From contig JAJZQH010000014.1 of NCBI GenBank assembly GCA_021810905.1, forward strand, positions 12,369 to 76,368: a DNA stretch of 64,000 nt. The letters are read 5' to 3'. Source of the DNA: a bacterium. Its GTDB lineage: Bacteria > UBA10199 > 2-02-FULL-44-16 > JAAZCA01. The position numbers and the translations under genes were made by a program. Positions 5,884-51,818 of the stretch are shown here, piece after piece (the first letter of the stretch is position 1; the number at the start of each line of letters is the position of its first letter). Under the pieces are notes generated by a model that was not told where the DNA came from, made no database searches, and saw only the letters and a list, made by a program, of their open reading frames with translations.

Positions 5884-6038
5884 GAAATGACCTCTATTAG
5901 TTATCGGCAGTCAGCGGAAAAAGTTGCAATGAAAATTTTTTATCATGAAAACCGTTGAATTATCAGGCAGATGATCCTGTCGCATTCGTGAGATCGTCGA
6001 TTGCAGAATCCATTGGCAGATGCTATCTGCGGTGCCCT

Positions 6039-7205
6039 ATGAAGAATACGCGAAATCGATTTGTCTTCAGCGCGGCATGGACCGTCGCTGGGATCATGGT
6101 TCTGGCCCTGTCTTTTACCGCCGCTTCCGCCTCTGCGCGTGACAAAGGTGGTTCCGGCGACGTGATAAATTATTCTTGGGCTTCCAGCAGGATCGAAGGC
6201 GAGCTCTGGGGGCTGGCACAGGGAAACCTGGATAACGACGGCTCCGCTGATACTGTGCTGCTCGAGCGCAAGCGCGTTCGCATCGGGAAAATCGGGGAGA
6301 AGGGCTTTGAGGAGCGATTCTCGTGCGGATGGAAAGAGGACGCGGCCGCGGCGCGCGCGTATCTGATCGATGTCGATGGTGATGGAAAAGACGAGATCGC
6401 AATATCCGCGGTAGAGGAGGGGATGCCCTCGTCGCTCGTGCTTGCGGTCGACGCGGACGCAAAGAAATGCAGCGAGCTCGTCTCGCGCGCGAGATGGTCG
6501 ATTCGCGCTGTGGCGCTGCCTGCTGAAGGCGCGGACACGGGGCCTGCCAGGCGCGTACTCGCCGGCCAGGCGTGGAGTTCGCAGAAATATTTCAGCGGCC
6601 CTATCGTGGAACTCGCGCTTAAGAAGGACAAGCTGGTCAGGCAGCGTGATATCGAGCTGCCGCACTTTACCGATCTTTATCAGTTCACGATCCTGCCGCC
6701 GGAGAACGGCGCTGAGCGGGTGCTCAGGCTCGCCGGCTATTCGGCAATGGAGCTTAGGGAGCACAAGGGCGGCGGCAAGTGGCGCAAGATCTGGCGCTCC
6801 GGCGACAAGCTCGGCGGGGCCGCGAATCTCCTTCCAGCCGTGCAGCGGCCCGCGCTCGATGAGGTGTCGAGCGACTACGCATATTTTGACCTGCCGCCGC
6901 TGACCCTCAAACAGGCCGATGGAGTGCACGCTCTGGCGGTCAAATACGACCTGCCGCTGCGCAACGTGATCGGAAGGACGCCGTACGCCAGGGGTGCAGA
7001 GACGGTGATGTTCAAACCAGATCCAGCGCTCACGTACATAGAAGAGAAGCGGACCCAGGACCTGCCAGGCCCGATCATGGATTACTTCATCGCAGCGCCG
7101 GCCGACTCCGCAGGCAAGGTCAGGCTTTATGTACTGGTACAGCAGGACGCAGGAGCCTTCATCAACTCCACCGAGGCATCGATACTCGCGTTCGATCTGA
7201 ACTAG
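6039..7205 (+). CDS. secreted hypothetical protein with FG-GAP/VCBS-like Asp-rich repeats
   Basis: Start set at MKNTRNRFVFSAAWTVAGIMVLALSFTAASASA, a signal peptide. Motifs DNDGSADTV and DVDGDGKDEIA. Stop TAG at 7203-7205. Confidence 0.65.
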   Translation: MKNTRNRFVFSAAWTVAGIMVLALSFTAASASARDKGGSGDVINYSWASSRIEGELWGLAQGNLDNDGSADTVLLERKRVRIGKIGEKGFEERFSCGWKEDAAAARAYLIDVDGDGKDEIAISAVEEGMPSSLVLAVDADAKKCSELVSRARWSIRAVALPAEGADTGPARRVLAGQAWSSQKYFSGPIVELALKKDKLVRQRDIELPHFTDLYQFTILPPENGAERVLRLAGYSAMELREHKGGGKWRKIWRSGDKLGGAANLLPAVQRPALDEVSSDYAYFDLPPLTLKQADGVHALAVKYDLPLRNVIGRTPYARGAETVMFKPDPALTYIEEKRTQDLPGPIMDYFIAAPADSAGKVRLYVLVQQDAGAFINSTEASILAFDLN

Positions 7206-7434
7206 GCACAACACATGAGGATCATGGTTTCGGGTCCTGTCGCCGGCCACCCCCATTTGTGACCTTCCGATAGGATTGTTGTACAATGCTGAAATGCCGC
7301 AGCGTGGGTTCCGCGCTGCGGCCGGCATCGCCGCATCTATCACAACTTTATGCGGGCATCGAAGGCGGCTGCTGGCGTCAAATGGGGGTCCCCCGTCCAG
7401 CGCCACCCAAAACCATGATCCTCATGTGTTGTGA
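7206..7434. repeat. 229-nt long-hairpin element with 24-25 nt terminal inverted repeats (MITE-like or structured RNA)
   Basis: GCACAACACATGAGGATCATGGTTT at 7206-7230 is the reverse complement of 7410-7434 (24 of 25 match). Interior is further self-complementary (CCACCCCCATTTG with CAAATGGGGG). Starts on the first base after the stop of the upstream gene. Confidence 0.6.
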
Positions 7435-13779: not shown

Positions 13780-13952
13780 CGTGGGAATGTGGAGAGGCAC
13801 AGGGTGTGAACAGGACGAACGCGCACTTTTCCTCCGTTATTTCCGGAAAATCCGCAATTTGCGCTCGATATCTGAATTTCCAAAAAAAACACGCAACTAT
13901 TTCTTGAAATTGTCGACAATGCGAGTGGATAGTGACGTCTGCGTGGAGAACC

Positions 13953-15806
13953 ATGATATTCGATAGAAACAGTGATTATGATGAAGTGCAGAGCCTCTTC
14001 CGCATTGCGGAGTGGTACGGTTTCCTCTATCGCGTTGAGGCGCGCGGGCTTGCTGAACTCAAGAAAGCGGCCATGCGCGTAGAGCCGCTCGATAAATACG
14101 ATCGTAATTTGCTTGAAAATGCATACAGAGCGCTCGTCAATCATCCTGAAGCTGAAATGGCACGTGCGCGCTGGAAGATTAAACGCGGCGGCCAGGCTGA
14201 AGCAGGAAACGGATTAACTCTCTGGCCCGTTGAAAGCAGCAGGGATACAGTGCCCGCATCCGGAGAAGTCTCCTCCTCCGAAGCCACGACGCAACCGCCG
14301 CCGCCTCCCGCCCCAGAAGCTGATACGCTGCCGCCTCCCGCTGCTGACGAAGCTGTTGAGTTTCCGCCGGCGACTCCCGTTCCCGCCGAGACCAGAGATT
14401 TGACTTCGAGAAAAGAAATGGAGGCGCAGTTGAGAGTGCTGGGGCCCGCCTTCTCGAAGACGGCGCGCATGGCGATATCTTTGTCAAAGGATTCGATATA
14501 TATTGAGTTCATACATCTTCACTTCGACGGGTTGTTCGCAAGGCTCTCCGCCCTGATCAATGCGTTGACGGATGATAAGACATCATCGTCTGTATCATTG
14601 GCTGACAGATTCATCACGCGCGCCAGCCAGGACATGAATACCGCCGGATTGCTAACCGAGTGCGATACAGGGGTCCTGCACTTCTTTGCAGCAGGCCTTT
14701 TGGCCGATATATCCATGGCGCTGGCAGAGTTTGAGGGAGAGGATGGTGAGCGGCTTTCTGCATTATCGCAGCTCGTGATATCCGCAAAACAGTCGGATGA
14801 ATTGTTGTCGGCGGCGCGTGCGCAGATACTTGAAGCGCATCTCCGCGCGCAACTGATATTGAACCCGTATCCAGATCCTGCAACGTTCAATACGGCTGAG
14901 CAAAACAACAGCCGTCCAAGAGACGGTACTCCGACCGTCGTGGCGCCTGCTGAGGTCAGTGCAGCTCCGGTCAGAAACGTTAGAGCCGACAGCCGTCGAG
15001 TCGAGGCCTATGACGTCGATGAAACAAGGGAGCGCTGTCTGGAACTGGTCAACAAGTTAGGCGTCGGCAGCACTGGCGCGCATATAATGCAGCGACACAA
15101 TCAGCTTCAACGGATACTGGGCGGCGCGTTTGATGTCGAACCTCTTTCCACGGTCTTCAGGCAGATAGTCCGCGATCTCGATATGATTGCGCGCATAGAC
15201 GATGCTCAGAGATTGCGTCCAGAGATATACGAAAGCGGCGAGAGCGCCGAGAATGGAATGAAGGCGTTTGATGGACTGGTGCAGAATGTCTGCAAGGAGA
15301 TAAAAGTTGCAGCCTTGATGATAAAAAAAGAGAGCGAAAATACAGCTGAAGACTTCGAAACCCTGGCGAAAGAAATATCAGATGACCTACAGGAGCTGTG
15401 GAAGGGGCGTTCAATAGTTGCGACTTTACGAATAAGAGAGATGGAGGAAGAGGTCAGAAGTCATCTTCTTGCAGAGTTCCAGAACGAAGGCCGTACAAAG
15501 TTCGATGAACTGCGCGCAAAGCTCATGGACGGGCATATCCGCGCTGCCTGCATCATCACTCCGGTCGATGTGCCGTCGGCAGGCGGGTCGGGCACGCCGG
15601 GCGGAGGCAATGCGGGTCCGGCTACATCGGCAGACGGCGATCCGGAGATAAGAGTTACTTATTCATCTGTTGAGCAGGGTGAAGACTCTTCCGCGGTTTC
15701 CGATGGCGATACGTTTGGGACCTCTTCCCTCGAATACCTCGACGCCGCCGGCGTACCGGCGGCGCAATTGGCTTCCTCTCAAGTTATCCTGTCCCCGGTT
15801 CTTTAA
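13953..15806 (+). CDS. hypothetical protein with Pro-rich linker
   Basis: Long ORF with coding-like composition. Start ambiguous: GTG 13932 or ATG 13953. Internal PPPPPAPEADTLPPPAADE linker. No recognisable domain. Confidence 0.5.
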   Translation: MIFDRNSDYDEVQSLFRIAEWYGFLYRVEARGLAELKKAAMRVEPLDKYDRNLLENAYRALVNHPEAEMARARWKIKRGGQAEAGNGLTLWPVESSRDTVPASGEVSSSEATTQPPPPPAPEADTLPPPAADEAVEFPPATPVPAETRDLTSRKEMEAQLRVLGPAFSKTARMAISLSKDSIYIEFIHLHFDGLFARLSALINALTDDKTSSSVSLADRFITRASQDMNTAGLLTECDTGVLHFFAAGLLADISMALAEFEGEDGERLSALSQLVISAKQSDELLSAARAQILEAHLRAQLILNPYPDPATFNTAEQNNSRPRDGTPTVVAPAEVSAAPVRNVRADSRRVEAYDVDETRERCLELVNKLGVGSTGAHIMQRHNQLQRILGGAFDVEPLSTVFRQIVRDLDMIARIDDAQRLRPEIYESGESAENGMKAFDGLVQNVCKEIKVAALMIKKESENTAEDFETLAKEISDDLQELWKGRSIVATLRIREMEEEVRSHLLAEFQNEGRTKFDELRAKLMDGHIRAACIITPVDVPSAGGSGTPGGGNAGPATSADGDPEIRVTYSSVEQGEDSSAVSDGDTFGTSSLEYLDAAGVPAAQLASSQVILSPVL

Positions 15807-20600: not shown

Positions 20601-20681
20601 AAAACGTCGTTCGTCGTTAGTCGTTCGTGAATCGTAAAGACCTCAGTCACTTGGGCGGTTTTACGATCGACGAACGACGAA
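20601..20681. repeat. TAGT-arm hairpin element, copy A (5-prime leader of yfgM-like gene)
   Basis: AAAACGTCGTTCGTCGTTAGTCGTTCGTGAATCGTAAAGACCTCAGTCACTTGGGCGGTTTTACGATCGACGAACGACGA. Arms and core are self-complementary. Homologous copies at 36618-36728 and 39975-40050. Confidence 0.65.
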
Positions 20682-20758
20682 GGAGGTGTCCAATTCCTAC
20701 CTATAAACAGCTGCCGCGCGGGAAGCAAAAAGCGCACGACGATTTCAAAGACTGGAGC

Positions 20759-21382
20759 ATGCACGCTATACAGTGGATCGTAGCCCACTGGGTTGGCGTT
20801 ATAGAGCTCGTGGCCGTGGGCGCAGTTGCGGTCGCCGTCATCATGGGAGCCTCTGCATACGGAAGGTATCGCGCCGATGCCGCGGCTCTTAAGTTCTATG
20901 CGGCCGATAAACTTGAGAATAAATCCGACGCGCGCTTGGAAGCGCTCAAAAAAGTTGCAAAAGATTACTCGCGCACGTCGGCGGGTCGTCAGGCTACGAT
21001 GCAACTGGGAGACATGCTTGCCGAACGCGGCGATCGCGATGGCGCGATCGAACAATTCAGATTGCTTGCGGAAGGTTCGCGCAATCAGCCGCTCTTCCGC
21101 GTGGCCGCGCTGCATCGCATAGCCGATCTCCAGCTTGCCGCCGGCAATTCGGCCGAGGCGGCGGAGACTTTCCGCAAGGCGGCTGCGGATCCCAAAAATC
21201 TTACCGCCCTTACGAGCGAGCTGCTCGCTGCCTCATGCCTCGAACGAGCCGGCGATTACGCGGGCGCCGCTCTTCTCTACAAGAGGATCATTAAGGACGC
21301 AGGCGAGGGCGACCGAGCCGTGCGCGAACAGAGCGAGGAGCGACTCATATGGCTTTCGGCAAACGGCTTGATCGCCGGCTGA
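20759..21382 (+). CDS. YfgM-like TPR membrane protein
   Basis: N-terminal transmembrane segment WVGVIELVAVGAVAVAVIMGA followed by TPR-like helices, matching E. coli YfgM architecture. Genomic neighbourhood holds bamB-like and der. Upstream in-frame extension to 20627 overlaps the repeat and was not taken as coding. Confidence 0.6.
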   Translation: MHAIQWIVAHWVGVIELVAVGAVAVAVIMGASAYGRYRADAAALKFYAADKLENKSDARLEALKKVAKDYSRTSAGRQATMQLGDMLAERGDRDGAIEQFRLLAEGSRNQPLFRVAALHRIADLQLAAGNSAEAAETFRKAAADPKNLTALTSELLAASCLERAGDYAGAALLYKRIIKDAGEGDRAVREQSEERLIWLSANGLIAG

Positions 21383-22623
21383 GCTTGGTTTTTGTCGCGC
21401 CGCTTGTTTTCGCGCTTTCTTTCGCGGCGCTTTCGGACGATGCGTTCGCGGCAAAGCAGCGAGCCAGTCATCATTTCACGAGCCAGGAATCTCATCAGCG
21501 GCCGGAGAAGTATCGCAGCGGCTCGTTCAAATCTACGTCGGCGCGTAAATTCAAGGTTAAGACCAGGCGCATCGCCTCTCTCAAAAAATCCTCATTCTGG
21601 AATACGCGGCCTTACCAGTTCGCTACACCGCTCGTGGCTGGAGACCGTATCTTTGTCGGCGTCGATGCCGGTCGTTTCTACGCGTTCGATCTGGAGAAGG
21701 GCAAGCAGCTCTGGGAGTTTCAGACCGATGGGCCGGTCCACAGCAAAGCCGCGTACGCGGATGGCGCCGTCTATGTGCCGGACGTGGAAGGCAGAGTCTA
21801 CGCGCTGGACGCGGGAAGCGGCGAGAAGCGCTGGACCGCAACGCTCGACACCGACATCCTAGCAACTCCTTACGTGGAGGGAAATCGGCTCTATGTAGCG
21901 ACCATGTCCGGACGCTTATATGCACTGGACATCTCGACCGGAGTTGAACTCTGGCACACGGACACCGATGAGAAGGAATTCGGCTTCTCCGTAAGGCGTT
22001 CGTCCGCGCCCGTTGCGGCGGGCGGAGTGGTGCTCTACGGAACGTCCTCGGGCCTTCTACGAGCTGTGCGCGGGAGCGACGGCTCCCAGGTATGGAGCCG
22101 CCAGCTCTCCGAAAAGAAGGGACAGGTATATGACGTGGACAGCGAGCCGCTGCTCTATAACGGAAAGGTCTACGAGAGCACTGCCGAAGGCACGCTTTCA
22201 AGCATCGATCTTGCCAGTGGCCGCATAATCTGGACTGTCGACGCTGGAGGCGTGAACGATCCGATAGCGAAGGACGGGCGGATCTACTGCACGGGCGGAG
22301 GGAGCCTCTACGCGCTCGATCCTGACAGCGGCGATATCTACTGGCAGCAGGATCTGGAAGTGCCGGAGATCTCGTCGCCTGTATCGAACGACAACTATAT
22401 CGCGGTCACCTCCACTCGCGAAAAGATCTATCTGATAGACAGGGATTCCGGCGACATCGCGTATGAGCGCTACATAGGCAAAGGGAGCTACGGCGATCCG
22501 ATAGTCTCCGGGGACAAAGTCTATCTGCTTGGCAACACCGGCAAGCTCTTTTCCTTCCTCATAAAGGAAGCAGAGCCCAAGGAAGAGGCAAAGGTGAAGA
22601 AAGGGAAAAAGAAGGCGGAGTGA
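21349..22623 (+). CDS. BamB-like PQQ beta-propeller lipoprotein
   Basis: Signal peptide, then repeated PQQ-like blades (RFYAFDLEKGKQLWEF, RVYALDAGSGEKRWTA, RLYALDISTGVELWHT). GAGGAG ribosome-binding site. Confidence 0.75.
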   Translation: MAFGKRLDRRLSLVFVAPLVFALSFAALSDDAFAAKQRASHHFTSQESHQRPEKYRSGSFKSTSARKFKVKTRRIASLKKSSFWNTRPYQFATPLVAGDRIFVGVDAGRFYAFDLEKGKQLWEFQTDGPVHSKAAYADGAVYVPDVEGRVYALDAGSGEKRWTATLDTDILATPYVEGNRLYVATMSGRLYALDISTGVELWHTDTDEKEFGFSVRRSSAPVAAGGVVLYGTSSGLLRAVRGSDGSQVWSRQLSEKKGQVYDVDSEPLLYNGKVYESTAEGTLSSIDLASGRIIWTVDAGGVNDPIAKDGRIYCTGGGSLYALDPDSGDIYWQQDLEVPEISSPVSNDNYIAVTSTREKIYLIDRDSGDIAYERYIGKGSYGDPIVSGDKVYLLGNTGKLFSFLIKEAEPKEEAKVKKGKKKAE

Positions 22624-22698
22624 AATTGATTGCCACCCAAAGCCGCCTCTGATAATTTTTCATTCGATGGGCGTCTCTTCGGAACCTACGGGGGATTC

Positions 22699-24687
22699 AT
22701 GAGAGATATGCAGAAGCGCCTGTGGGCACTCGTTGCCGCGGCAGTGGTCTCCGCAATACCTGCTGCGGCGGGCGCGGACAGTCCGACGTTCAACGCTATA
22801 TTCTTTCATCCCGCCACCGGCCGGAATACTTACCTCATGCTCCAGGGAACCGAGACCCTGCATCAGATGCAGTTCGACGTGGGCGAATATTTTTCGTACG
22901 GATGGCATCCGCTCGACATACGCACGACCGCAGGATCTCGAGTGCAGGGCGTGATCAGCCAGTTGGTCGTAAGCGATTTCACCGCCGCGATCGGCGCAAC
23001 TGATTGGCTGCAGTTCGGACTCGACGTGCCGGTGGTCCTCATCAACAGCTTCCGCGAGCCTGACGCCGTGCAAGGTGCTCCGACCGCAAATCACTTCAAC
23101 CTGAGCGACATACGTTTTGAGGCAAAGGGCAGATTCCTTGATGCATGCAAGACGCGCATCGGGCTCGCGCTCGTGCCGTTCGTCACCTTCCCCACTGGCA
23201 GTGACGCGCATTACGTGGGCGACCCGGGCTTCACCGGAGGCGCCACGATCGCACTTGACGGCAAAGTTTCGAGAAAGATCGGACTCACGCTCAACGTGGG
23301 CTATCAGGGCGGTCGAAAGGTCAAGATCTCGAACGTCGAGTTCCAGCACAGGCTGCTCCTCGGCGGCGGTATCCAGGGCAACATATTCCGCGGGCTCGAC
23401 GTATTCGGTGAGATCAACGCGATAGCGGCGTTCAACAAACTCCTGCACGACCGCGATATGAATCCGACGGAATTCATGGCCGGCGCAAGATGGGACGTGG
23501 GGAAGACGGGCCTTACGGTTCAAGGCGGGGCCGGCACTTGCCTGGTCTGCGGCGTGAAGGGCGCACGTATCAGGGCCGTGGCCGGTCTCAAGTACAGGCT
23601 CAGCACTCCCAAGTATCGCCAGCTCGAAGATCAGCGTGCGGGCGTCTGCACGCTGCGGGGGTATTTCAGCAAGTCACGGCTCTATGAGCTCAAACAGAAT
23701 TGTCCGCAGAAACCTGAGGACTATGTCCAGGGAGTGCACGACGACGCGTGTCCCAAATATTATGAGCTGCAGGAGCTGGCGGGGTTAATCCTCAAGTGTC
23801 CCGTGAGGCCGGAGGATTTCAATCCGAGCATGCATGATCCCGCATGCCAGAAGGTATATGACATGCCGGATGAATTTTCGCCTGCGGATGTACGCAACAT
23901 CGTGTCAATGGCGGTGGCGGAGATGAGCCTCATCTGTCCCGCTGATCCCACGAATTTCAACGCGCAGATCCACGATGCGGCCTGCCCCAAATATTACGAT
24001 CTCAAGGAGACCGAGGCGCTTGCCAGCCGCTGTCCATCCAACGCGGACGACTATAAGGAAGGCGTGGACGATCCGTCTTGTCCCAAGTACTACACCCTGC
24101 GAGAGGCCTACGGCGATATCGACTGGAACGAGGTTAACAAACTTCGCAGCATCGATCTGGATCGTTACGGCTCCGCCATCCTCGGCGGCGAGATCCAGAC
24201 GTTGCGGCCCGTGTATTTTGACTTTGCGAAGTCGAACCTCCTGCCGACAATGCTTCCTGTGCTCGATCAGGTTATTCGCGTCATAAACGAAACTCCGTGG
24301 GTGAGCGTGGTGAGGATCGGCGGGCACGCGGACGCGCGAGGCACCGTGGATGCGAATGAGAAGATCTCCATGAAGCGCTCACAGACCGTGATCGATTACA
24401 TGAAATCGCATGGGGTGCGCAGCGACGTGCAGCTCATACCGGTAGCTTACGGTTCGTACAGGCCCGCAGCCTCCAACGAAACCGAAGAGGGACGCGCCCT
24501 CAACCGCCGCGTCATATTCACGGTCTCGAGCTACAAGATCCCGAAATATACGCCATCCGCGATAAAAAAGGCGTCAGCAGCGCCGGCGCCATCCGCGCCG
24601 ATGGGGGAGACTCCCTCGTTAGAAACGGGCGCCGAGCCAGTCAAAGAGGGAGAGCCGCAGCTTCCCCCGTCGCGATGGTCGGAGTAA
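22699..24687 (+). CDS. OmpA-family outer membrane protein with four or five tandem two-cysteine repeats
   Basis: Signal peptide MRDMQKRLWALVAAAVVSAIPAAAGA and an N-terminal beta-barrel-like region. Middle holds repeats CPxxPEDYxxGVHDDACPKYYxL. C-terminal OmpA domain reads VRIGGHADARGTVDANEKISMKRSQTV..LNRRV. Confidence 0.75.
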   Translation: MRDMQKRLWALVAAAVVSAIPAAAGADSPTFNAIFFHPATGRNTYLMLQGTETLHQMQFDVGEYFSYGWHPLDIRTTAGSRVQGVISQLVVSDFTAAIGATDWLQFGLDVPVVLINSFREPDAVQGAPTANHFNLSDIRFEAKGRFLDACKTRIGLALVPFVTFPTGSDAHYVGDPGFTGGATIALDGKVSRKIGLTLNVGYQGGRKVKISNVEFQHRLLLGGGIQGNIFRGLDVFGEINAIAAFNKLLHDRDMNPTEFMAGARWDVGKTGLTVQGGAGTCLVCGVKGARIRAVAGLKYRLSTPKYRQLEDQRAGVCTLRGYFSKSRLYELKQNCPQKPEDYVQGVHDDACPKYYELQELAGLILKCPVRPEDFNPSMHDPACQKVYDMPDEFSPADVRNIVSMAVAEMSLICPADPTNFNAQIHDAACPKYYDLKETEALASRCPSNADDYKEGVDDPSCPKYYTLREAYGDIDWNEVNKLRSIDLDRYGSAILGGEIQTLRPVYFDFAKSNLLPTMLPVLDQVIRVINETPWVSVVRIGGHADARGTVDANEKISMKRSQTVIDYMKSHGVRSDVQLIPVAYGSYRPAASNETEEGRALNRRVIFTVSSYKIPKYTPSAIKKASAAPAPSAPMGETPSLETGAEPVKEGEPQLPPSRWSE

Positions 24688-24704
24688 AATCTTGTGACAA
24701 TCAA

Positions 24705-24794
24705 CCCCTCCCCTTTGTAAGGGGAGGATGGGAGAGGTAGACCGTGGATACAACCACGATCTACCTCCCCTCGCCCCTCCTTACAAAGGAGGGG
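24705..24794. repeat. REP-like palindromic element: two inverted units of CCCCTCC-TTTGTAA-GGAGGGG..GGGAGGTAGAYC
   Basis: Unit at 24705-24743, palindromic spacer GTGGATACAACCAC, inverted unit at 24758-24794. The same unit recurs at 57518-57555. Confidence 0.7.
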
Positions 24795-24817
24795 AATAAA
24801 TCGTCACTTATCACTGC

Positions 24818-28560: not shown

Positions 28561-28834
28561 TATTGCGTGTTGGCCGATTGCCTTCGCGCGACCGTTCATC
28601 GCGGTTTTCGCCCACGAGCTGTTTTCTTTCCTCGTATTCAACCTGATGCCATGTCGGTAATGGAAGCCGGTAAAGATCGCCAAAATATTGACAACCGCGC
28701 GTGTTTTTCCTGATTTGAGAAATCACAATGTTGCGCCGTGCATTACAACCCCATCAATAGAAAGAGTTTTTTCTGAAATACAGATAGCCCGTTCGCGGCA
28801 CGATATTTGCTGTATAATAGGTGAGGAGGTTCTT

Positions 28835-30001
28835 ATGAAAAACAGAACAATAATCGTCTTTGTCATTGGTGTGTTTATGCTTGCAGCCGGTTCCGCCCTT
28901 GCAGCGCCTGTCTCTCAGACTTCCGAAATACGCGTGCAACAGGTAATGCCGGTTCAGCCGGGCGCCGTCAAAACCGCTCCGGCAACACCGCAATACCAGA
29001 TCCAAAAGCAAGTAATGCCTGTAATGAAGTCAGCCATAAATATTGAGGGAGGCATCGCGATTCCGAAGCGTATCGTCTACACTGAATATAAAACATCTCC
29101 CTCCAATTATGGCGAAGTGGCGGATACGCGTTCATACACCCTTAATTTTGAAAGCGGGGTGCTTTCAAACATACAGGAAACTTATTTCGGTGGTTCGTAT
29201 GAATATGATTTTACATACTTAAATAATAAGGCGACCAAGATCGTTAAAAAGAGCATTCCCTCCAATAATGTGGAAGGCATTGTTGTATACAGCTATGACG
29301 GTCCTTCTGGAAAGCTCTCTACGGAAAAGGATTATGATGGTCCAATGTCGGATGTCGATCCAACCGTGAATCTAATCGGATGGTACGATTACGGTTATAA
29401 TCAAGGAATCAGATATGGTTCCAAGACGAGTAAAAGTTCTAGCGGGACATATCAAAAAAATGCAGATTGGAACGAAGTATCTACCTTCAATACGGACGGT
29501 TTGCCCAATTACCTCACTGTTAATGATCGTCCCAATACGATACCACTTTCCGACAGGGTTGCTATCGCGTACGGCAATGACGGTTCTGTAGAGAGTATCG
29601 ACGAAAATCAGGATGCTGTTCTGAGCGTGGCAGGCCAGACCCAGGATCACGCAACTCCGATTAACAGATTCTCTCAGATCACATATGAAAACGGTATGCC
29701 CAAGAAGATGTCAATTTTCGAGGACAATAAATTGGCGTACGTTGTTCAAGCTGAAGATGTGGATGCCGTGGGGCGAGTACTCAAAGAAGCAACGTATGTT
29801 TGCAAGGATAAACCGCAATGTTTAAAATGGCGTGAGACGACTTTCGAATACGAATATTTTGCGCTGAAACCTTTGTCGCCTCCGCTCTTCACGGTGATAT
29901 CTAATCTGGCAAAGTATGAAAGCCTTCTTTTCCTGGGTCAGCCGACCTTGCTCTTCGGTAGTGACGGTGTCGGCTTGTATCAGTGGATGAAAGGTTTTTG
30001 A
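28835..30001 (+). CDS. secreted hypothetical protein (AT-rich, probably acquired)
   Basis: GAGGAGG ribosome-binding site, signal peptide MKNRTIIVFVIGVFMLAAGSALAAPVSQ. Y/D/G-rich beta-repeat-like sequence. GC far below window average. Confidence 0.65.
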   Translation: MKNRTIIVFVIGVFMLAAGSALAAPVSQTSEIRVQQVMPVQPGAVKTAPATPQYQIQKQVMPVMKSAINIEGGIAIPKRIVYTEYKTSPSNYGEVADTRSYTLNFESGVLSNIQETYFGGSYEYDFTYLNNKATKIVKKSIPSNNVEGIVVYSYDGPSGKLSTEKDYDGPMSDVDPTVNLIGWYDYGYNQGIRYGSKTSKSSSGTYQKNADWNEVSTFNTDGLPNYLTVNDRPNTIPLSDRVAIAYGNDGSVESIDENQDAVLSVAGQTQDHATPINRFSQITYENGMPKKMSIFEDNKLAYVVQAEDVDAVGRVLKEATYVCKDKPQCLKWRETTFEYEYFALKPLSPPLFTVISNLAKYESLLFLGQPTLLFGSDGVGLYQWMKGF

Positions 30002-30651: not shown

Positions 30652-32982
30652 TCACCGGAAAACCGTGCCCAAGTGCATGGAGATAGGCGACAGTGTGGCG
30701 GCGGAATCGATGTTGAGTGTTGCTCCTTCATCGATCGCATCCCCGTTCCATTCGACGATCGAGTCCATTTCAGCGAAATAGTCTGATGCATTCTCTCCCG
30801 CGGCCGAAACCTTCTGGCTCTTGGAGCCTTCGATCATCTCCTTCACTGCGAGCACCGCATCCGTACGCGCCTTCGCAGGCTCGCGTGAAGCAGATTCCCT
30901 CGCGCGAAGGAGTCTTGCGCGGATTTCTTCGGGCATCTCATGTTCGGGCGCCGTGGAGAGCGCCATGTCCACGATTTCCGCAGCGTGCAGGATGCTGCGC
31001 AGGCGCGGCGCCGGCTCCGTCATCATCCAGGCGCCCATGATCAGCACGCTCCTCACGTAATTGCCGCTGATCGATTTTGACGGATCGTTCAGCGCGACGA
31101 AGAGACGAAGATCCACGCCCTTGAGGGTGTGGAGGGTATGTCCTTGCGCGATGAGTTCACGGAGGTGCGGCTCGATCGTTTCCCTGCGTCGGAGAAAATA
31201 TTCGGCCGGACCTGCGATTTCCTTATGGAGTTTTGCGGCCCGTTTATCATCAAGAAGACCGCCAGCCCTGAGCGCACCGACGAGGGTACCCAGCGCATAA
31301 TGCCGCTCGGCCTCGGGGAAATGATATGCATCTGCGGGGATGTCGCCCCGTGCCTTGAGATTTTCAACTGCGATGCGGTCTCTTCGCGCGACCAGAAAAC
31401 GGGTGAGCTGCAGATCGTCGGCAAGGAGCGCAGGATGTATTCCCTTCAGGGTTGCCGAACGGTCGAAGATCGTGCGCGCGCTGGTCACGCGTGACTGGTC
31501 CTTGATCGCCTGATCGGCCTTGAGCGCGCCGCTGTACTGCAGTGCACACATCAGCGTGGAAACGGAATAGGCCGTTGGAATGCAGCGAGAGCTCTGGCGA
31601 CGTAATTTTTTCTGTTCCCTGGATACCCGTGGAGCCGCCTTTCTGAGTTCATCGTAGAGGAGGTCGAAGGTGGGGATATCTTTTGAGGCGATCGACTGCA
31701 GGATCCTGGAATGATGGTAGAGTTCGATGGCATCCGCGACGCGAAGCAGGCCCTGAAGTTTCGATTTTCCTTTTGCACCCGAGAGCATGCCATGTCCCGC
31801 AAGGCAGGCCAGGTACATCGTGGCGATGCTCAGGCGGGAGCGGGATTCAGCCCCAATGACCTGGGCACGAATGGATCTGAGTTTCGCGACCATTGTCGGC
31901 GCATCCATTAGATCCTCGGGCGCTATGGAACGCAGGGGAGCGGATCGTTCAAAGAGCTCCATTGCGCTCGCCCACCGTCCGAACATCTCGGCCCTGCCTT
32001 CGGGTATGACGCCGGCTGCGGCCAGCATTCTGAATATTGTGGAATAGCTATACTCCGCGCGAATGTCTCGAACCTCGCTCTTTTCATCTATGAGCTGTTT
32101 TCGGATTCGAGGCAATGCTGCAATGAATGCCTCAGGGCACGCCGTGAGCGAGGAATCCATCCGTTGCAAAGCCGGGGACCGTTCGTAAAAGTCGCGGTAT
32201 TGAGCCGTAGTCTCAAATTCCCGCGAGGCCCTCTCGGAGATTCGCCCTGCCGCAATCAGGGCGCGCGTCAGAGTCAGAAAGGAATAGGGAGCGGTTTGTA
32301 CGTGAACCCCATCAGATCGTCTTGTCTGTCTCTTCGTCTTGAGGATATGCGGCCGAAGTTCAGCCAGCTTTTTCATGAGCCGCTGCGGAGAGGAGAGATC
32401 CTGTTTGCTCACTGACCGGAGGATGCTGCTTCGCTCATAGATCTCTGCGGCGCTGGCCAGCCATACGGCCGTCTGCCAGTCCGTCCTCGGGGCCAGGCTG
32501 TTTGTCTCAACCAGGGCGGCGACGAGGGCCGAGAGTTTGCATCCGATGCGCCATGGGTCAGCTTCCGTGAATTCTGCGAGTTTCTTCTCGATCGCGCATC
32601 TTTGCCGGACGAGCGCCTTCACGAGCGAGATGGGGGTCTCTGAGGATTCATCCGCAATCTTTCTGAGCGTCGAGGAGCCGACTATCAATTCCTCGAACTT
32701 TTTATGGAGGGCTGGGCTGGACTTCCTTCGGGACTTGCCGCCCTTGGATGCAGCGCTGTCGCGCCCGTCTGTCAGCCTCTTGAGCGCGTCTCCAGAGAGG
32801 ACGTGCGACAGGGCGTCGATCACCTCATAGCGATCGTCGACCGAAGCTACACCTCTATGAGTGATCCGGAGGGAGTCCCGGATCAGGCGCGCGTCTTTTG
32901 CGGCGAGCGAATCCTCGTGAGACGTATCGATGAATCGAACGATTACCCTTGTAGTTGATGCATTCAGCAGTATCCGGGCCAC
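30652..32982 (-). CDS. large hypothetical protein with internal repeats of about 80-90 aa (776 aa)
   Basis: GTG start preceded by GGAGGAG. At least five repeats share (I/L)(Y/F)(E/D)RSxxL(R/Q)S(I/V)...DL...KL, for example AAEIYERSSILRSVSKQDL, AMELFERSAPLRSIAPEDL, AIELYHHSRILQSIASKDI. Confidence 0.55.
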   Translation of the reverse strand: MARILLNASTTRVIVRFIDTSHEDSLAAKDARLIRDSLRITHRGVASVDDRYEVIDALSHVLSGDALKRLTDGRDSAASKGGKSRRKSSPALHKKFEELIVGSSTLRKIADESSETPISLVKALVRQRCAIEKKLAEFTEADPWRIGCKLSALVAALVETNSLAPRTDWQTAVWLASAAEIYERSSILRSVSKQDLSSPQRLMKKLAELRPHILKTKRQTRRSDGVHVQTAPYSFLTLTRALIAAGRISERASREFETTAQYRDFYERSPALQRMDSSLTACPEAFIAALPRIRKQLIDEKSEVRDIRAEYSYSTIFRMLAAAGVIPEGRAEMFGRWASAMELFERSAPLRSIAPEDLMDAPTMVAKLRSIRAQVIGAESRSRLSIATMYLACLAGHGMLSGAKGKSKLQGLLRVADAIELYHHSRILQSIASKDIPTFDLLYDELRKAAPRVSREQKKLRRQSSRCIPTAYSVSTLMCALQYSGALKADQAIKDQSRVTSARTIFDRSATLKGIHPALLADDLQLTRFLVARRDRIAVENLKARGDIPADAYHFPEAERHYALGTLVGALRAGGLLDDKRAAKLHKEIAGPAEYFLRRRETIEPHLRELIAQGHTLHTLKGVDLRLFVALNDPSKSISGNYVRSVLIMGAWMMTEPAPRLRSILHAAEIVDMALSTAPEHEMPEEIRARLLRARESASREPAKARTDAVLAVKEMIEGSKSQKVSAAGENASDYFAEMDSIVEWNGDAIDEGATLNIDSAATLSPISMHLGTVFR

Positions 32983-43023: not shown

Positions 43024-43137
43024 TTCAAGGGGAATGATTGACCTTGCGGTATTGGTGCTGTAAAAAAGCGATCCGTGTTGAACAGCCGCCGCAATAACGC
43101 AGAGAGTGGGCTATGCGAAAGACGATAATATTGAAAG

Positions 43138-43262
43138 CTCCCCGCGGCAAGCCGCGGGGAATCATCGGCAACATTTCCGATCACCCTCACCCTTCCCTCT
43201 CCCCTCAAGGGAGAGGGTGGCGGAAACCCCGCAGCAAGCTGCGGGGTTTCATCGGATTGGCA
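43138..43262. repeat. cluster of three REP-like hairpins
   Basis: Hairpin a: CCCCGCGG-CAAG-CCGCGGGG at 43140-43159. Hairpin b: 43171-43229, the near-identical copy of the gltB insert, with CCCTCTCCC-CTCAA-GGGAGAGGG. Hairpin c: AAACCCCGCAGC-AA-GCTGCGGGGTTT at 43224-43249. Hairpins a and c are followed by the related tails AATCATCGGCAA and TCATCGGATTGGCAA. Confidence 0.7.
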
Positions 43263-43271
43263 ATCATCTTT

Positions 43272-44939
43272 ATGCTGTCCTCCATCGGCGGGACGGCGCG
43301 GGCTGCGCTCAATCCGTCTTCGCCGTTCCAGGTCTTCTGGGACGACGCGCCGATGACGATTTCCGCTGGAACCCCATTCCATCTCAACGTCACGATCAGG
43401 GCGCCCGAGGGGTATTATCTGTATGCGGATGAGACTGACCTCGATTTTGTGAGCCTGGAAGGCCTGTTTGTAAAAGATATTCGATATCCGCGCCCCATTC
43501 AGTACACCGACCCTTATTTAGGCAAGACAGTTGGTATTTTCAAAGGCGATACGGTCATATCGATAGAAGGCATGGCGCCCGCGGGTCTCGAACCTGGCAG
43601 AAAGGAACTCACCGCTTTATTGCATTTCAGAGGGTGTTCTCCTTCGCTCTGTTACAGGCCGGAAGAGGATGAAATCGCCTTCATACTGGTCGTGGAGCCA
43701 GCGCCGCAGGTGGAGCGAGTCGAACCAAAGAATCCGGACGTGCATGCGCAGGAGGAGTCAACGCCAATGCCCAGGAGCCTGCCGGAGCAGCTGGGGCTCA
43801 AGCACCTGCTGCAGGTTCAGGATTTCTCGACTCTGCTGGGGCGCGGAACTCTCTTTGCGCTGCTCGTCGTCTTCCTTGCGGGAGTGCTGACTTCGCTCAC
43901 GCCGTGCGTCTGGCCCGTGATACCCGTGGTCCTCCTCTATGTAGGTGTGCACCCGCACAAGCGCTTTCTGGAAAACTTCCTCCTCTCGGCCGTGATGGTC
44001 CTGGGGATAGTGGTCACCTATGCCGCACTGGGCATCGGCGTTGCGGCCTTTGGAAAAAACCTGGGTTTCCTCTATCAGCAGCGGTGGTTTTTGGCGCTGG
44101 TCGTGCTCTTCTTCATTGCGATGAGCCTCTCGATGTTCGGGGCCTTTGACATCCGCATGCCGCGCCGCCTTCATGCGCGGCTCCATGCGCTCGGGGGCGA
44201 GGGATACTGGGGCGCCTTCCTGGCTGGCATGGGGCTGGGGCTCGTCGCCTCGCCTTGTTCGGGCCCGGTGCTCGCGGCGCTTTTGGGTTACGTGGCCCTG
44301 CAGGGTAGCTACCTCGTAGGTTTCGGCCTGCTCATAGTCTACGGCCTCGGGATGGGCCTGCTCATGATGCTGCTCGGCGCATGTTACGGAGAGCTTGCCG
44401 GCAAACTCAAAGGGGGCGCGTGGATGCTCTGGATAAGGCGCGCCCTTGGAATCGTATTGCTGTTCCCGGCGGCGTACTACATGGGCGTGCTCTTCAACTG
44501 GAACCCGCAGCACAAGGCCCCTGCGAACGCCGCGCGAATAGAGTGGGTGACCAGTGAAACCGACGCCCTGCGCGCTGCAGCCCAGACGGGTAAATCCGTC
44601 ATGATCGATTTTACGGCCGCGTGGTGTCCGCCGTGCGGAGCGCTCGAACGCAATTTCTTTTCGAGAAACGACGTCATCGGGTTGGGCTTCGAGCTCATCC
44701 CGCTCAGGGTGGACGCAACGTCCGAGACAAAGGACGTGCGGCAGCTCATCGCCAGATACCGCGTCGCAGGATGGCCGACCGTTCTCTTCGTGGGGCCGGA
44801 CGGAACCGTGTACGAGGACCTGAGGGTGAGCGATTACGACCCTCCGGCAATCGAGCGCAACATGCGCGAAGCGATAAAGAGGGCCCATGCTTCTGACATG
44901 CCCGGAATACGCTCCGAACGAGCGACGGAGAAGCGATGA
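43272..44939 (+). CDS. dsbD: thiol:disulfide interchange protein DsbD-like (CcdA-type membrane core plus C-terminal thioredoxin)
   Basis: Transmembrane Cys pair LTPCVWPVIPV and SPCSGPVLAALL. C-terminal thioredoxin FTAAWCPPCGALE. Start uncertain (ATG 43272 or upstream TTG); the long upstream in-frame extension covers the repeat cluster. Confidence 0.75.
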   Translation: MLSSIGGTARAALNPSSPFQVFWDDAPMTISAGTPFHLNVTIRAPEGYYLYADETDLDFVSLEGLFVKDIRYPRPIQYTDPYLGKTVGIFKGDTVISIEGMAPAGLEPGRKELTALLHFRGCSPSLCYRPEEDEIAFILVVEPAPQVERVEPKNPDVHAQEESTPMPRSLPEQLGLKHLLQVQDFSTLLGRGTLFALLVVFLAGVLTSLTPCVWPVIPVVLLYVGVHPHKRFLENFLLSAVMVLGIVVTYAALGIGVAAFGKNLGFLYQQRWFLALVVLFFIAMSLSMFGAFDIRMPRRLHARLHALGGEGYWGAFLAGMGLGLVASPCSGPVLAALLGYVALQGSYLVGFGLLIVYGLGMGLLMMLLGACYGELAGKLKGGAWMLWIRRALGIVLLFPAAYYMGVLFNWNPQHKAPANAARIEWVTSETDALRAAAQTGKSVMIDFTAAWCPPCGALERNFFSRNDVIGLGFELIPLRVDATSETKDVRQLIARYRVAGWPTVLFVGPDGTVYEDLRVSDYDPPAIERNMREAIKRAHASDMPGIRSERATEKR

Positions 44940-46858: not shown

Positions 46859-46922
46859 CACGCCTGCAGAATCAATTTTCGTTACAGCGCTTGACGGGTA
46901 CGCGGAGAGCGTGTATCGGGTT

Positions 46923-46942
46923 ATATCGTCATATGACGATAT
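46923..46942. promoter_or_regulatory. 20-bp perfect palindrome, candidate ArsR operator
   Basis: ATATCGTCAT then ATGACGATAT, 30 nt upstream of the arsR ATG. A TTGACG hexamer lies at 46891-46896. Confidence 0.5.
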
Positions 46943-46971
46943 AACGATAAATGATTTTGGCGTGAGGACGT

Positions 46972-47349
46972 ATGGACGAACTCCAGCGTATGTTCAGGGC
47001 GCTTGCCGATTCGACAAGACTGCGGATAGTCAGGATGCTCGTGATTAAGCCTCTTTGCGTCTGCGAGGTTATGTCCGTGCTTCGCATGGCGCAATCCACT
47101 ACGTCGAAGCACCTGCGTATTCTTCATGATTCGGGGCTCGTCGAAGAGACGCCCGGCGGCACCTGGACAATCTATCGTCTCGTGAAACCGGAGCTCGGAT
47201 CGGCGGCGGAGTATCTTCTTGATCTCATCAAGAAGGCAGAGGTGACGGAGCAATCGAAACGGGACGAGGAACAGGCGAGAGGGGCGGACCGCGAACGAAT
47301 CTGCCGGTTGCGCGCAAAGAAGACAATCAAACGGCAACGGCGGAGGTGA
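46972..47349 (+). CDS. arsR: ArsR/SmtB family metalloregulator
   Basis: ALADSTRLRIVRMLV..PLCVCEVMSVL carries the CVC As(III)-binding motif in helix 3. HTH region TTSKHLRILHDSGLV. Confidence 0.9.
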   Translation: MDELQRMFRALADSTRLRIVRMLVIKPLCVCEVMSVLRMAQSTTSKHLRILHDSGLVEETPGGTWTIYRLVKPELGSAAEYLLDLIKKAEVTEQSKRDEEQARGADRERICRLRAKKTIKRQRRR

Positions 47350-47352
47350 GCT

Positions 47353-48423
47353 ATGGCCGAGAGCGGCGTCAAAAAACGTCTCAATGTATTCGAACGTTAC
47401 CTCACGCTTTGGGTGGCGGCTTGCATGGTGATTGGTGTGGCGATCGGCCGATATTTGCCGGTGGCTACCGATGCGCTGCGGAGATTCGAATTCGGGACGC
47501 AGAGTCACATCAACGTCGTTATCGCTGTCCTCATCTGGCTCATGATTTATCCCATGATGCTCAAGGTCGACTTCGGGTCGATCCTGAACGTCGGGCGTCA
47601 GCCGAGGGGGCTTGCCATCACGCTCTTCGTCAACTGGCTCGTCAAACCCTTCAGCATGGCCTTCTTCGGCTGGCTCTTCTTCCGACATGTCTTCACGCCG
47701 TGGATCGGCCCCGAGATGGCCGACCAGTATATAGCCGGCGTCATCATTCTCGCTGCGGCGCCTTGCACCGCCATGGTATTTGTCTGGAGCTATCTCACCG
47801 ACGGCGACCCGGCTTACACGCTCGTGCAGGTGACGATCAACGATCTTATCATGCTCGTCCTTTTCGCTCCGATCGTGAAGTTCCTCGTCACCGGCGCTTC
47901 GACGCTCGAGGTCCCGTTTGTCGTGCTTGTCTGGGCCGTGGTCTTGTTCATCGTAATTCCACTGACGGCGGGAACCGTCACGCGCGCAATCCTCCTCAAA
48001 GCGAAGAACGCAATTTGGTTCGAGGAGAAGTTCCTCCCGGTCCTCCATCCTGTTTCGATCCTGGCCTTGCTTCTTACGCTCGTCATCATCTTCGCCTTCC
48101 AGTCGGACAACATCACGCAGCGATTCTTTCACGTCATCCTGATCGCGGTCCCGATCCTCATCCAAGTCTACTTCAACTCAACCCTTGTCTATACGCTCAT
48201 GCAGAAGTTCCGTGTCCGATTCTCCATTGCGGCGCCGGGCGCGCTCATCGGGGCATCGAACTTCTTTGAGCTGGCGGTAGCCACAGCCATCGCGCTCTAT
48301 GGCCCGGGTTCTGGTGCTGCGCTGGCTACGGTGGTCGGCGTGCTCGTTGAAGTGCCGGTGATGCTCTCAGTCGTCGGGATCTGCAACCGTACGCGCGGCT
48401 GGTTCGCAAACGCCACACGCTAG
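47353..48423 (+). CDS. acr3: arsenite efflux transporter, ACR3 family
   Basis: MAESGVKKRLNVFERYLTLWV..IYPMMLKV. About ten predicted transmembrane segments. ACR3 family length and pattern. Confidence 0.88.
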   Translation: MAESGVKKRLNVFERYLTLWVAACMVIGVAIGRYLPVATDALRRFEFGTQSHINVVIAVLIWLMIYPMMLKVDFGSILNVGRQPRGLAITLFVNWLVKPFSMAFFGWLFFRHVFTPWIGPEMADQYIAGVIILAAAPCTAMVFVWSYLTDGDPAYTLVQVTINDLIMLVLFAPIVKFLVTGASTLEVPFVVLVWAVVLFIVIPLTAGTVTRAILLKAKNAIWFEEKFLPVLHPVSILALLLTLVIIFAFQSDNITQRFFHVILIAVPILIQVYFNSTLVYTLMQKFRVRFSIAAPGALIGASNFFELAVATAIALYGPGSGAALATVVGVLVEVPVMLSVVGICNRTRGWFANATR

Positions 48424-50015: not shown

Positions 50016-51818
50016 ATGACGCAGATGACGAAATATCTTTTTTTCTCGGGCAAGGGAGGCGTCGGCAAGACCACGATGGCGTCCTCAACCGCCATTCATC
50101 ATGCGGAGGCAGGAAAACGGACCCTGATCGTGACGACCGACCCTGCCTCCAACCTGGCCGATGTCTTCGAGCAGGAGATAGGGCACGCAATAACGCCCAT
50201 CCGGGACGTGAAGGGTCTCTTTGCCATGGAGATCGACCCCGATGAAGCGACGAGGGAATACAAGGAACGGATCATCGGTCCGTTCAGGGAGGTTATGCCG
50301 GAAGACGTCATCGCGTCCCTCGAGGAAAACTTAAGCGGCCCGTGCACTACGGAGATGGCCTCCTTTGACCGCTTCATCGACTTCATGGAGGACGATGCCT
50401 ACGACGTCATCGTGTTTGATACCGCCCCAACGGGCCACACGATAAGGCTCCTTGAGCTGCCGGTTGACTGGTCCAGGCATATTGAGGAATCCGCAAAGGG
50501 GAGCGGGCAGACATGCCTCGGCCCGGTTCAGTCCATCCAGGAATCGAAGGCAAAATACGACAGGGCGACTGCCCTCCTCACCGCTCCCGACAAAACGAGC
50601 TTTGTCTTTGTCATGAGGCCTGAGGAGCTGTCGCTCTACGAAACCCTCAGGGCATCCCGCGAGCTCGAGACCATCGGTGTAAAATCGGGAGAACTCATCA
50701 TCAACGGCATTCTGCCGGAAGAGGTCTGCGAGATCGCCTTCTTCAGAAAAAAATACGAGGCGCAGCAGCGGGTCATCAAAGAGGCGGAGTCGGCAATACC
50801 AAAACCAACGCGCTTCATGCTCCTTCGGGACAATGAGGTCAAAGGCATAGAGGCGTTACGTGCTATGGCAGAGGAGCTCTACAATGGCACGAGATCTGCC
50901 CCCAGCGTCGAGGGCATGACGTTCCAGGCCGATATCGCCGTGGAGAAGCCGGACGTCGATCGCCTCCTCCTTCCTGCCGGCGAGACGAAGGCGATATTCT
51001 TCACTGGGAAGGGCGGCGTGGGCAAAACGACTGTGTCCTGTATCGCGGCTGTTCATATCGCGCAGAGGGGTTTTAAGACGCTCCTCGTTACGACGGACCC
51101 GGCGGCGCACATCGGGGAGGTGCTCGGCGTGAAGGTCCAGAGCACGCCGACTCTGGTTACGTATAATCTGTACGCCGTCATGGTCGACCAGGAAGAGGCT
51201 TTCAATATCTATAGGGACAGGGTCTTGAGCGAATCCAGAGGCAAATATTCCGAGGACATGATTGCCGCCATGGAGGAAGAGCTGAATTCGCCGTGTACTC
51301 AGGAGATGGCGGCCTTTGACACCTTCATCCAGTTCATCGAAAGCAAGGAGTACGACGCCATCGTCTTTGACACGGCGCCGACGGGTCACACCTTGAGATT
51401 GCTCTCCCTGCCGTTTGATTATGCAAAGCAGATGGAGATGATGGTATCGACGGAAGAGGCTTCGCACGCCGGCAATGTGACGGGCAACAGGTTTCGTGAT
51501 ATCATCGACGTACTGAAAAACAAGAACAAGGCATGTTTCGCTTTCGTCCTTTATCCCGAGTCCACGCCGATTCTCGAATCTTACAGGGCGATGCTGGACC
51601 TCAGGGATGCCGGAATCGAGACGCAGGTTGTTGTCTCCAATATGATGTTGCCGAAAGAGGTCTGTACCAACCATTTCTTTGAGAACAGAAGAAGGATGCA
51701 ACTGAAATATCTGTTGGAAATCGAGGAGAAATTCAATCTGCCGGTCCTGCAGCTACCGCTCTTCCAGGATGAAGTAAAGGGCCTCGGACCGCTGAAAATG
51801 GCGGCGGGAAATTTGTAA
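50016..51818 (+). CDS. arsA: arsenite-stimulated ATPase ArsA
   Basis: Two homologous halves, each with a P-loop GKGGVGKTT, DTAPTGHT signal-transduction motif and metalloid-site Cys (GPCTTEMA and SPCTQEMA). Confidence 0.92.
   Translation: MTQMTKYLFFSGKGGVGKTTMASSTAIHHAEAGKRTLIVTTDPASNLADVFEQEIGHAITPIRDVKGLFAMEIDPDEATREYKERIIGPFREVMPEDVIASLEENLSGPCTTEMASFDRFIDFMEDDAYDVIVFDTAPTGHTIRLLELPVDWSRHIEESAKGSGQTCLGPVQSIQESKAKYDRATALLTAPDKTSFVFVMRPEELSLYETLRASRELETIGVKSGELIINGILPEEVCEIAFFRKKYEAQQRVIKEAESAIPKPTRFMLLRDNEVKGIEALRAMAEELYNGTRSAPSVEGMTFQADIAVEKPDVDRLLLPAGETKAIFFTGKGGVGKTTVSCIAAVHIAQRGFKTLLVTTDPAAHIGEVLGVKVQSTPTLVTYNLYAVMVDQEEAFNIYRDRVLSESRGKYSEDMIAAMEEELNSPCTQEMAAFDTFIQFIESKEYDAIVFDTAPTGHTLRLLSLPFDYAKQMEMMVSTEEASHAGNVTGNRFRDIIDVLKNKNKACFAFVLYPESTPILESYRAMLDLRDAGIETQVVVSNMMLPKEVCTNHFFENRRRMQLKYLLEIEEKFNLPVLQLPLFQDEVKGLGPLKMAAGNL

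Follow-up and report, generated by a model that had tools for sequence, protein, structure and literature searches.

What kind of structure joins the outer-membrane barrel to the peptidoglycan-binding domain of an OmpA-family protein in which this connection is rich in paired cysteines? The question is raised by a gene (22699-24687, + strand) on a stretch of 64,000 nucleotides of bacterial DNA (assembly GCA_021810905.1, contig JAJZQH010000014.1, positions 12,369 to 76,368), hereafter the window. The gene encodes a protein of 662 residues that consists of a signal peptide, a 12-strand TraB/FapF-like barrel, a Cys-repeat linker (residues 317-476), an OmpA domain and a disordered Pro/Ala tail. 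The original prediction, made from the sequence before any search, placed tandem two-Cys repeats between the barrel and the OmpA domain, and our analysis confirmed this arrangement, with four units followed by a PF00691 domain. The linker repeat represents a taxonomically narrow domain family without annotation, and the protein that carries it is of a known kind. As to its role, we favor, with a probability of about 0.5, a rigid, disulfide-stapled periplasmic spacer derived from thrombospondin type 3 (TSP3) repeats and built into a housekeeping tether that links the outer membrane with peptidoglycan; here we infer the disulfides, the compact fold and the role as a strut.

Four units in the linker match CP-x15-C[PQ]K[YV]Y and start at residues 335, 367, 413 and 445 (nucleotides 23701, 23797, 23935 and 24031). 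Each unit comprises a C-x15-C loop and then a 15-residue helix. Unit 1 (23701..23796, +) is composed of the loop CPQKPEDYVQGVHDDAC and the helix PKYYELQELAGLILK, and unit 3 (23935..24030, +) of the loop CPADPTNFNAQIHDAAC and the helix PKYYDLKETEALASR; both were assigned by motif, conservation and AlphaFold2 (AF2) modeling. Unit 2 (23797..23934, +), assigned by motif, alignment and AF2, contains the loop CPVRPEDFNPSMHDPAC and a helix beginning QKVYD, which continues into a conserved 14-residue helical extension. Unit 4 (24031..24126, +), assigned by motif and consensus, contains the loop CPSNADDYKEGVDDPSC and the helix PKYYTLREAYGDIDW; here V-D-D replaces V-H-D, and this is the most TSP3-like of the four units. 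The units are spaced by 32/46/32 residues, the extra 14 residues after unit 2 being the helical extension, and the period of 28 residues given earlier is therefore incorrect. The motif proposed at that time fits all four units, with two departures in unit 4, where D replaces H and S replaces A. The degenerate leading copy proposed with it is present at residues 317-334 (23647..23700, +; alignment and Cys co-occurrence), but it is a half unit only, with a single Cys (Cys317) and the helix SRLYELKQN.

Alignment of 239 distinct units gave the consensus C-P-x-[DN]-P-x-[DE]-[FYW]-x-x-G-[VIL]-[HD]-D-x-[AS]-C-P-K-[YVF]-[YF]-x-L, followed by an amphipathic stretch. Cys1, Pro2, Cys17 and Lys19 are conserved in 100% of these units and Asp14 in 95%, and the aromatic positions 8, 20 and 21 are also conserved. 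Position 13 is occupied almost only by His (70%), Asp (18%) or Asn. The proportion of His at this position varies by slot and is only 25% in slot 4 and 61% in slot 1, with Asn tolerated. The unit alignments, which display a His/Asp-Asp pair, thus bear out the earlier description of two Cys per unit together with a conserved His and Asp. Moreover, slot-specific signatures are kept across orthologues, such as KV[FY] in slot 2 and V-D-D in slot 4. Across 88 relatives, invariance or near-invariance holds for all eight repeat Cys, for the Lys that follows the second Cys and for most motif positions, and the slots retain their individual signatures; the motif is therefore not a chance resemblance. 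Pairwise identity among the units of the window protein is 9-16 of 32 residues, and Tandem Repeats Finder detected no tandem repeat in the DNA, which rules out a recent DNA repeat. Therefore, the low identity between units and the absence of a DNA tandem repeat indicate that the fourfold duplication is old and predates the family.

AF2 modeling of the linker alone, a check that the original prediction had called for, produced a confident all-helical domain (predicted local distance difference test score (pLDDT) 89.3, predicted template modeling score (pTM) 0.79), in which the helices begin exactly at the second Cys of each unit. The helices carry a hydrophobic i, i+3, i+4, i+7 pattern. The linker is likewise all-helical in the full-length model, which was built with 36 homologues (mean pLDDT 86.6; linker pLDDT 84-94). 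Both termini of a 12-strand barrel lie on the periplasmic side, and the OmpA domain is a binder of peptidoglycan; the linker is therefore placed in the periplasm, as had been proposed.

No counterpart of the repeats was found among the annotated domains and structures of Pfam, NCBIfam and the Protein Data Bank (PDB), so that the outcome named in the original prediction as its refutation, a match to a well-known domain, did not arise. The linker alone matched nothing in Pfam or NCBIfam at E<=10, and neither its sequence nor its profile retrieved anything in sequence searches of the PDB. Foldseek found no match to the linker model in the PDB (best E 2.4, TM <=0.25) and nothing better than E 0.5 when the PDB and BFVD were searched, and a cluster look-up gave no name beyond “OmpA family protein”.

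About 70 full-length homologues (34-74% identity) hold all four units at the same positions, and the 32/46/32 spacing is kept in the core orthologues. These homologues come from uncultured metagenome-assembled genomes (MAGs) labelled Deltaproteobacteria, Myxococcales, Bdellovibrio sp. or Pseudomonadota. The neighborhood der - brkB-like - (hydrolase) - yfgM-like TPR - bamB - X - guaB - guaA persists among homologues with identity as low as 33%, which argues that this is a core envelope gene and not an accessory one. In the window, a yfgM-like TPR_21 gene and bamB, which overlap by 34 nucleotides, lie directly upstream (20627-22623). With der upstream and guaBA downstream, the locus resembles the enterobacterial der-bamB-yfgM / guaBA neighborhood.

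When 1.84 billion representative proteins were searched exhaustively with a profile of the linker alignment (A2; E<=1e-3), only 59 matched, and the repeat module occurred in no other architecture among them: the true matches are all barrel+OmpA proteins. Those with barrel, repeat and OmpA domain include a divergent branch with 3-7 units and longer helical spacers (P0097, P0103, P0105-P0107, P0109, P0110, P0113) as well as forms in which a direct fusion joins two units to a TSP3 unit (P0116, P0118, P0133, P0141). Two further groups of matches are giant HYR-like Cys-periodic proteins and OmpA proteins from other bacteria that carry canonical TSP3 arrays. The HYR-like giants (P0100, P0112, P0115, P0121, P0132, P0136), each with many matching stretches, proved on reading to contain unrelated beta-type repeats and were rejected as spurious. 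Linker-less forms also exist, namely P0067 and a 425-residue paralogue in which the OmpA domain follows the barrel with almost nothing in between. The latter stems from the MAG binchicken_co125_1081, which encodes two barrel-OmpA paralogues, one repeat-bearing (L011, 2572-4407) and one linker-less (L016, 2830-4107).

The origin of the repeat appears to lie in TSP3 repeats. Bacterial TSP3 repeats (PF02412; for example in the Capnocytophaga gingivalis OmpA, PDB 5WTL, and in Myxococcus xanthus TraB) likewise lie between a barrel and an OmpA domain, and they too consist of units of about 32 residues with two Cys, each followed by Pro. The linker units show the same two Cys per ~32 residues in a CP...CP frame, and the TSP3 arrays of distant TraB-like homologues have the same C-x15-C-x15 frame. 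The A-type TSP3 loop, CPxxPEDFDGFxDxDGCP, parallels the linker loop, CPxDPxDFxxGVHDxACP. The alignment of the two loop profiles by hhalign reached 93.8% probability (P 1.7e-7), whereas the B-type loop, a control with the same CP...CP anchors, reached 14.7%. In a shuffle control of the 14 interior columns, the observed score was 25.0 versus 12.9 +/- 3.5, and none of 200 shuffles reached it. Furthermore, canonical TSP3 arrays were the next-best matches of the linker profile among the representative proteins, and TSP3 and linker units stand side by side in the same proteins. Right after unit 4, many orthologues carry one canonical TSP3 unit of the form LDTDxDGINDYLDRCPxxPEDxNGFADxDGCPDGG; its deletion from the window protein and from the nearest relatives of that protein has left IDLDRYG as a remnant (24151..24171, +; alignment A1, columns 540-575).

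Common descent of the linker units with A-type TSP3 repeats is thus probable (about two in three) by these profile and alignment comparisons. The two kinds of unit nevertheless differ. The calcium motif DxDxDGxxDxxD is absent from all linker units, which have in its place an inter-Cys spacer, PKYYELxExxxLxxR, predicted to be alpha-helical, as well as the conserved His-Asp and Lys-Tyr-Tyr. The linker does not match PF02412 even at E<=10; the distant homologues P0072-P0087 do carry this domain. The loops of C. gingivalis 5WTL are shorter (C-x11-C), and this structure is absent from the PDB matches of the linker model and has no Foldseek likeness to it. The earlier statement that the repeats are not TSP3 thus holds for the calcium motif and the PF02412 match, but it overlooked the C-x15-C-x15 frame and the CPxxPEDF...CP pattern shared with A-type loops. 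The Cys loop of an A-type repeat may have been retained while the DxDxDG calcium loop between the Cys loops was swapped for a helix. The family may therefore be read as an evolutionary series, from a true TSP3 unit through the TSP3-like unit 4 and the His-containing units to expanded helical versions and linker-less paralogues, and the series suggests how a calcium-dependent repeat may become calcium-independent.

The pattern of Cys gain and loss points to disulfides within the units. In the 88 relatives, repeat Cys are lost only as whole units and never singly, and members that lack Cys317, unit 4 or the TSP3 unit retain every remaining repeat Cys. Inter-unit disulfides, from Cys17 to the next Cys1, were rejected, as they would strand an unpaired Cys in such members and would have to span a predicted helix of 15-29 residues. 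Intra-unit Cys1-Cys17 pairing is favored because no other scheme closes in every member; co-occurrence and parity thus fit intra-unit disulfides. Judging by its title, the study of Dai et al. (2017; cited in PMC12045341) reports an intra-repeat disulfide in bacterial OmpA TSP3 repeats as well. Two further Cys covary with each other: Cys150 in a periplasmic barrel turn (nucleotide 23146, within 23140-23151) and Cys317 at the start of the linker (23647-23649) occur together in 56 relatives, are jointly missing from about 30 and disagree in 2, which suggests a Cys150-Cys317 disulfide that would pin the linker to the barrel. A full-length DsbD homologue with DsbD_N, DsbD_TM and thioredoxin-like domains is encoded elsewhere in the window (43113-44939, +); it indicates that the host can isomerize disulfides in the periplasm, and the host therefore runs periplasmic thiol-disulfide chemistry. 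Disulfide-stabilized modules and metal sites had been offered as alternatives in the original prediction; the logic of Cys pairing narrows this choice toward disulfides.

We propose that the linker domain acts as a strut of fixed geometry that would set the distance and orientation of the OmpA domain below the outer membrane; in relatives, calcium-loaded TSP3 repeats perform this task. In this model, each unit would form a 15-residue loop that is closed at its base by a disulfide between the two Cys and stiffened by two Pro, an aromatic residue and the His/Asp-Asp pair. An amphipathic helix would begin at the second Cys (C-P-K-Y-Y-x-L...), and the four units would pack together with the leading helix as one rigid helical domain, which a further disulfide from Cys150 to Cys317 would fix on the barrel. 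This model is favored because of the confident prediction of a single domain, the fixed 32/46/32 spacing, the hydrophobic pattern of the helices, and the modular lengthening and loss of the linker in side branches.

Several observations weigh against such a strut of TSP3 descent. As the spurious HYR-type matches demonstrate, scores of the linker profile can be inflated by a periodic arrangement of Cys. In the reciprocal comparison, a TSP3-unit hidden Markov model (HMM) beat all 5000 shuffled decoys in 3 of 28 family linkers, and the linker of the window protein is not one of them; since this result is only marginal, TSP3 descent is graded as probable and no higher. The invariant Lys19 and the near-invariant His/Asp13-Asp14 are conserved beyond the need of a pure spacer, which hints at a binding or metal site. 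Each loop might accordingly be a site for Zn2+ or another divalent ion, coordinated by Cys1, His/Asp13, Asp14 and Cys17, in which the ancestral TSP3 Ca2+ site would have been converted and the folding or rigidity of the tether would depend on metal. The C-x11-[HD]-D-x2-C spacing indeed offers four potential ligands, the two central ones are drawn from a narrow set of residues, and the likely ancestor is a cation-binding repeat. Nevertheless, we consider a metal site unlikely: only two Cys per unit are invariant, His is far from constant in slots 1 and 4, most of the acidic TSP3 ligands are gone, and DsbD is encoded in the window. Periplasmic Cys pairs are normally oxidized in hosts with Dsb systems. 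Faint Foldseek matches to TAZ2, a helical Zn-loop domain, would favor metal binding, but their probability (<=0.06) and TM (<=0.23) are too weak to use.

The same conserved residues could instead bind a ligand, so that the repeats provide a second, multivalent contact beside the OmpA domain, for example with peptidoglycan glycan strands or with a periplasmic or lipoprotein partner. Lys19, the aromatic positions and the His/Asp13-Asp14 pair are all compatible with such a contact, the fourfold repeat adjoins a peptidoglycan-binding domain, and the gene is always adjacent to bamB. This appears rather improbable, as the conserved aromatic residues are spaced i, i+3, i+4, i+7, as is typical where one face of a helix is buried, no likeness to a known peptidoglycan- or carbohydrate-binding repeat emerged from Pfam, NCBIfam, the PDB or Foldseek, and adjacency to bamB is unspecific, being part of the wider der...guaBA housekeeping synteny. 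It is very improbable, in our estimation, that the tether is redox-switchable, with reduction of the loop disulfides unfolding or lengthening the linker and thereby loosening the coupling of the outer membrane to the wall. Up to five periplasmic disulfides are possible in the linker, DsbD is present, and a redox-active outer membrane-peptidoglycan tether, LppB, provides a precedent (bioRxiv 10.1101/2025.11.13.688167); but we saw no sign of regulated reduction, and invariant Cys pairs are equally expected for structural disulfides. The broader idea that the Cys and His-Asp loops form an undescribed periplasmic metal- or redox-responsive module, a TSP3 calcium repeat converted to a Cys/His site through which the length or stiffness of the tether would track metal availability or redox state in these uncultured bacteria, is likewise a distinctly unlikely one.

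Related proteins and repeats help to place the tether with its proposed strut. TraB of M. xanthus has a homologous barrel: the NCBIfam model TraB NF033763 matches residues 19-296 of the window protein (E 1.5e-42). TraB also shares the plan of barrel, Cys-containing linker and OmpA domain (PMC12045341). The window protein scores 145.3 bits, however, against a cut-off of 700, and no traA partner is present at the locus, where the neighbors are yfgM-like, bamB (upstream) and guaB; an identity as TraB was rejected on the low score and the absence of traA. In addition, it differs from TraB in having the new repeat instead of TSP3 and in being a syntenic housekeeping gene. The best structural matches of the barrel in Foldseek are 12-strand channels of the FapF / COG4313 (PF13557) type (E 2e-10 to 2e-7, target-normalized TM 0.60-0.70), led by FapF 5o67 (E 2e-10) and followed by the COG4313 channel 4rl8. 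In contrast to the window protein, these channels lack an OmpA domain and a Cys-repeat linker, and their identity to the barrel is 13-16%; PF13557 itself does not match the window protein. Pseudomonas OprF, also of the OmpA family, has a linker between barrel and OmpA domain with four Cys that form two disulfides, but this linker is short and non-repetitive and lacks the motif of the linker units. Helicobacter cysteine-rich / Sel1-like repeats are alpha-helical and each is disulfide-stapled in an oxidizing compartment, as proposed here, yet they are 36-residue helix-turn-helix units with another Cys spacing, and the linker has no sequence or Foldseek likeness to them (Pfam at E<=10, Foldseek against the PDB).

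Tethers that link the outer membrane with peptidoglycan set the stiffness of the envelope and the width of the periplasm, and knowledge of them comes mostly from Lpp, Pal and the E. coli OmpA with its flexible linker. The family described here provides a lineage-wide alternative, in which a core gene beside bamB encodes a folded and probably disulfide-stapled linker domain that has no annotated or solved counterpart. In practical terms the gain is modest: annotation of the Pfam type acquires a further domain family, and structural work a target in the form of a helical repeat that is compact and rich in disulfides. The family opens no major question and does not represent a new kind of system.

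The remaining parts of the gene are of known type. The open reading frame (ORF) extends over 22630-24687 (+), and the ATG at 22699 is the preferred start: GGGGGA lies 5 nucleotides upstream of it, and it agrees with the N-termini of all homologues and of a 100% identical database protein (P0001, 662 residues). Homologue alignment and direct reading of the sequence identified a type-I signal peptide that starts at this ATG, MRDMQKRLWALVAAAVVSAIPAAAG (residues 1-25; 22699..22773, +). An N-terminal segment and the 12-strand outer-membrane beta-barrel of the TraB / FapF / COG4313 type follow (22774..23601, +; NF033763 match, AF2 and Foldseek), and the full-length model contains 12 beta-strands at residues 59-300 with a barrel pLDDT >90. 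A conserved CxxC, GTCLVCGVKGAR (Cys281/Cys284; 23539-23550), occupies the tip of the barrel's final extracellular hairpin; its two Cys are always gained or lost together, and both are gone in the most divergent relatives.

The OmpA-like peptidoglycan-binding domain (24214..24507, +) was identified by PF00691 (residues 505-602, E 8.3e-14, 52.2 bits versus a gathering cut-off of 27.2), alignment and Foldseek. It has the standard fold in the full-length model, and its best structural relatives are Pal, OprF and AbOmpA (TM 0.76-0.88). Asp545 and Arg560 are invariant among the 36 homologues; from what is known of AbOmpA and Pal, we take them to be the residues that bind diaminopimelate (DAP) of peptidoglycan. 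A low-complexity Pro/Ala tail (24535..24687, +; pLDDT <50) ends in the conserved motif PPSRWSE before the stop codon. A tail of 39-128 residues (24535-24684 in the window) that ends in a P-x-[RK]-W-x(0-2) motif is present in 56 of 97 relatives. This type of terminus looks like a conserved C-terminal docking peptide, which might serve, for example, a PDZ domain or an inner-membrane partner.

The stop codon is followed directly by an inverted repeat (24694-24807), imperfect and with arms of 54 nucleotides, which is single-copy in the window. It is predicted to fold into three hairpins closed by an outer stem (minimum free energy -65.9 kcal/mol, z -9.25), and a comparison with Rfam gave only sub-threshold matches to generic hairpins (miRNA). 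The element could be a terminator, a repetitive extragenic palindromic (REP)-like element or a small RNA. Elsewhere in the window, eight large ORFs (414-776 residues) have no Pfam match at E<=1e-5: 4-2094, 5943-7406, 13932-15806, 28688-30001, 30652-32982, 46921-48165, 60020-61642 and 62440-63855; for 13932-15806 and 28688-30001, the Pfam threshold was E<=1e-3. Finally, genes for an ArsA-type anion-transporting ATPase and an ArsP-type permease (50016-51818 and 56564-57511) suggest a cluster for arsenic resistance near the window's 3' part.

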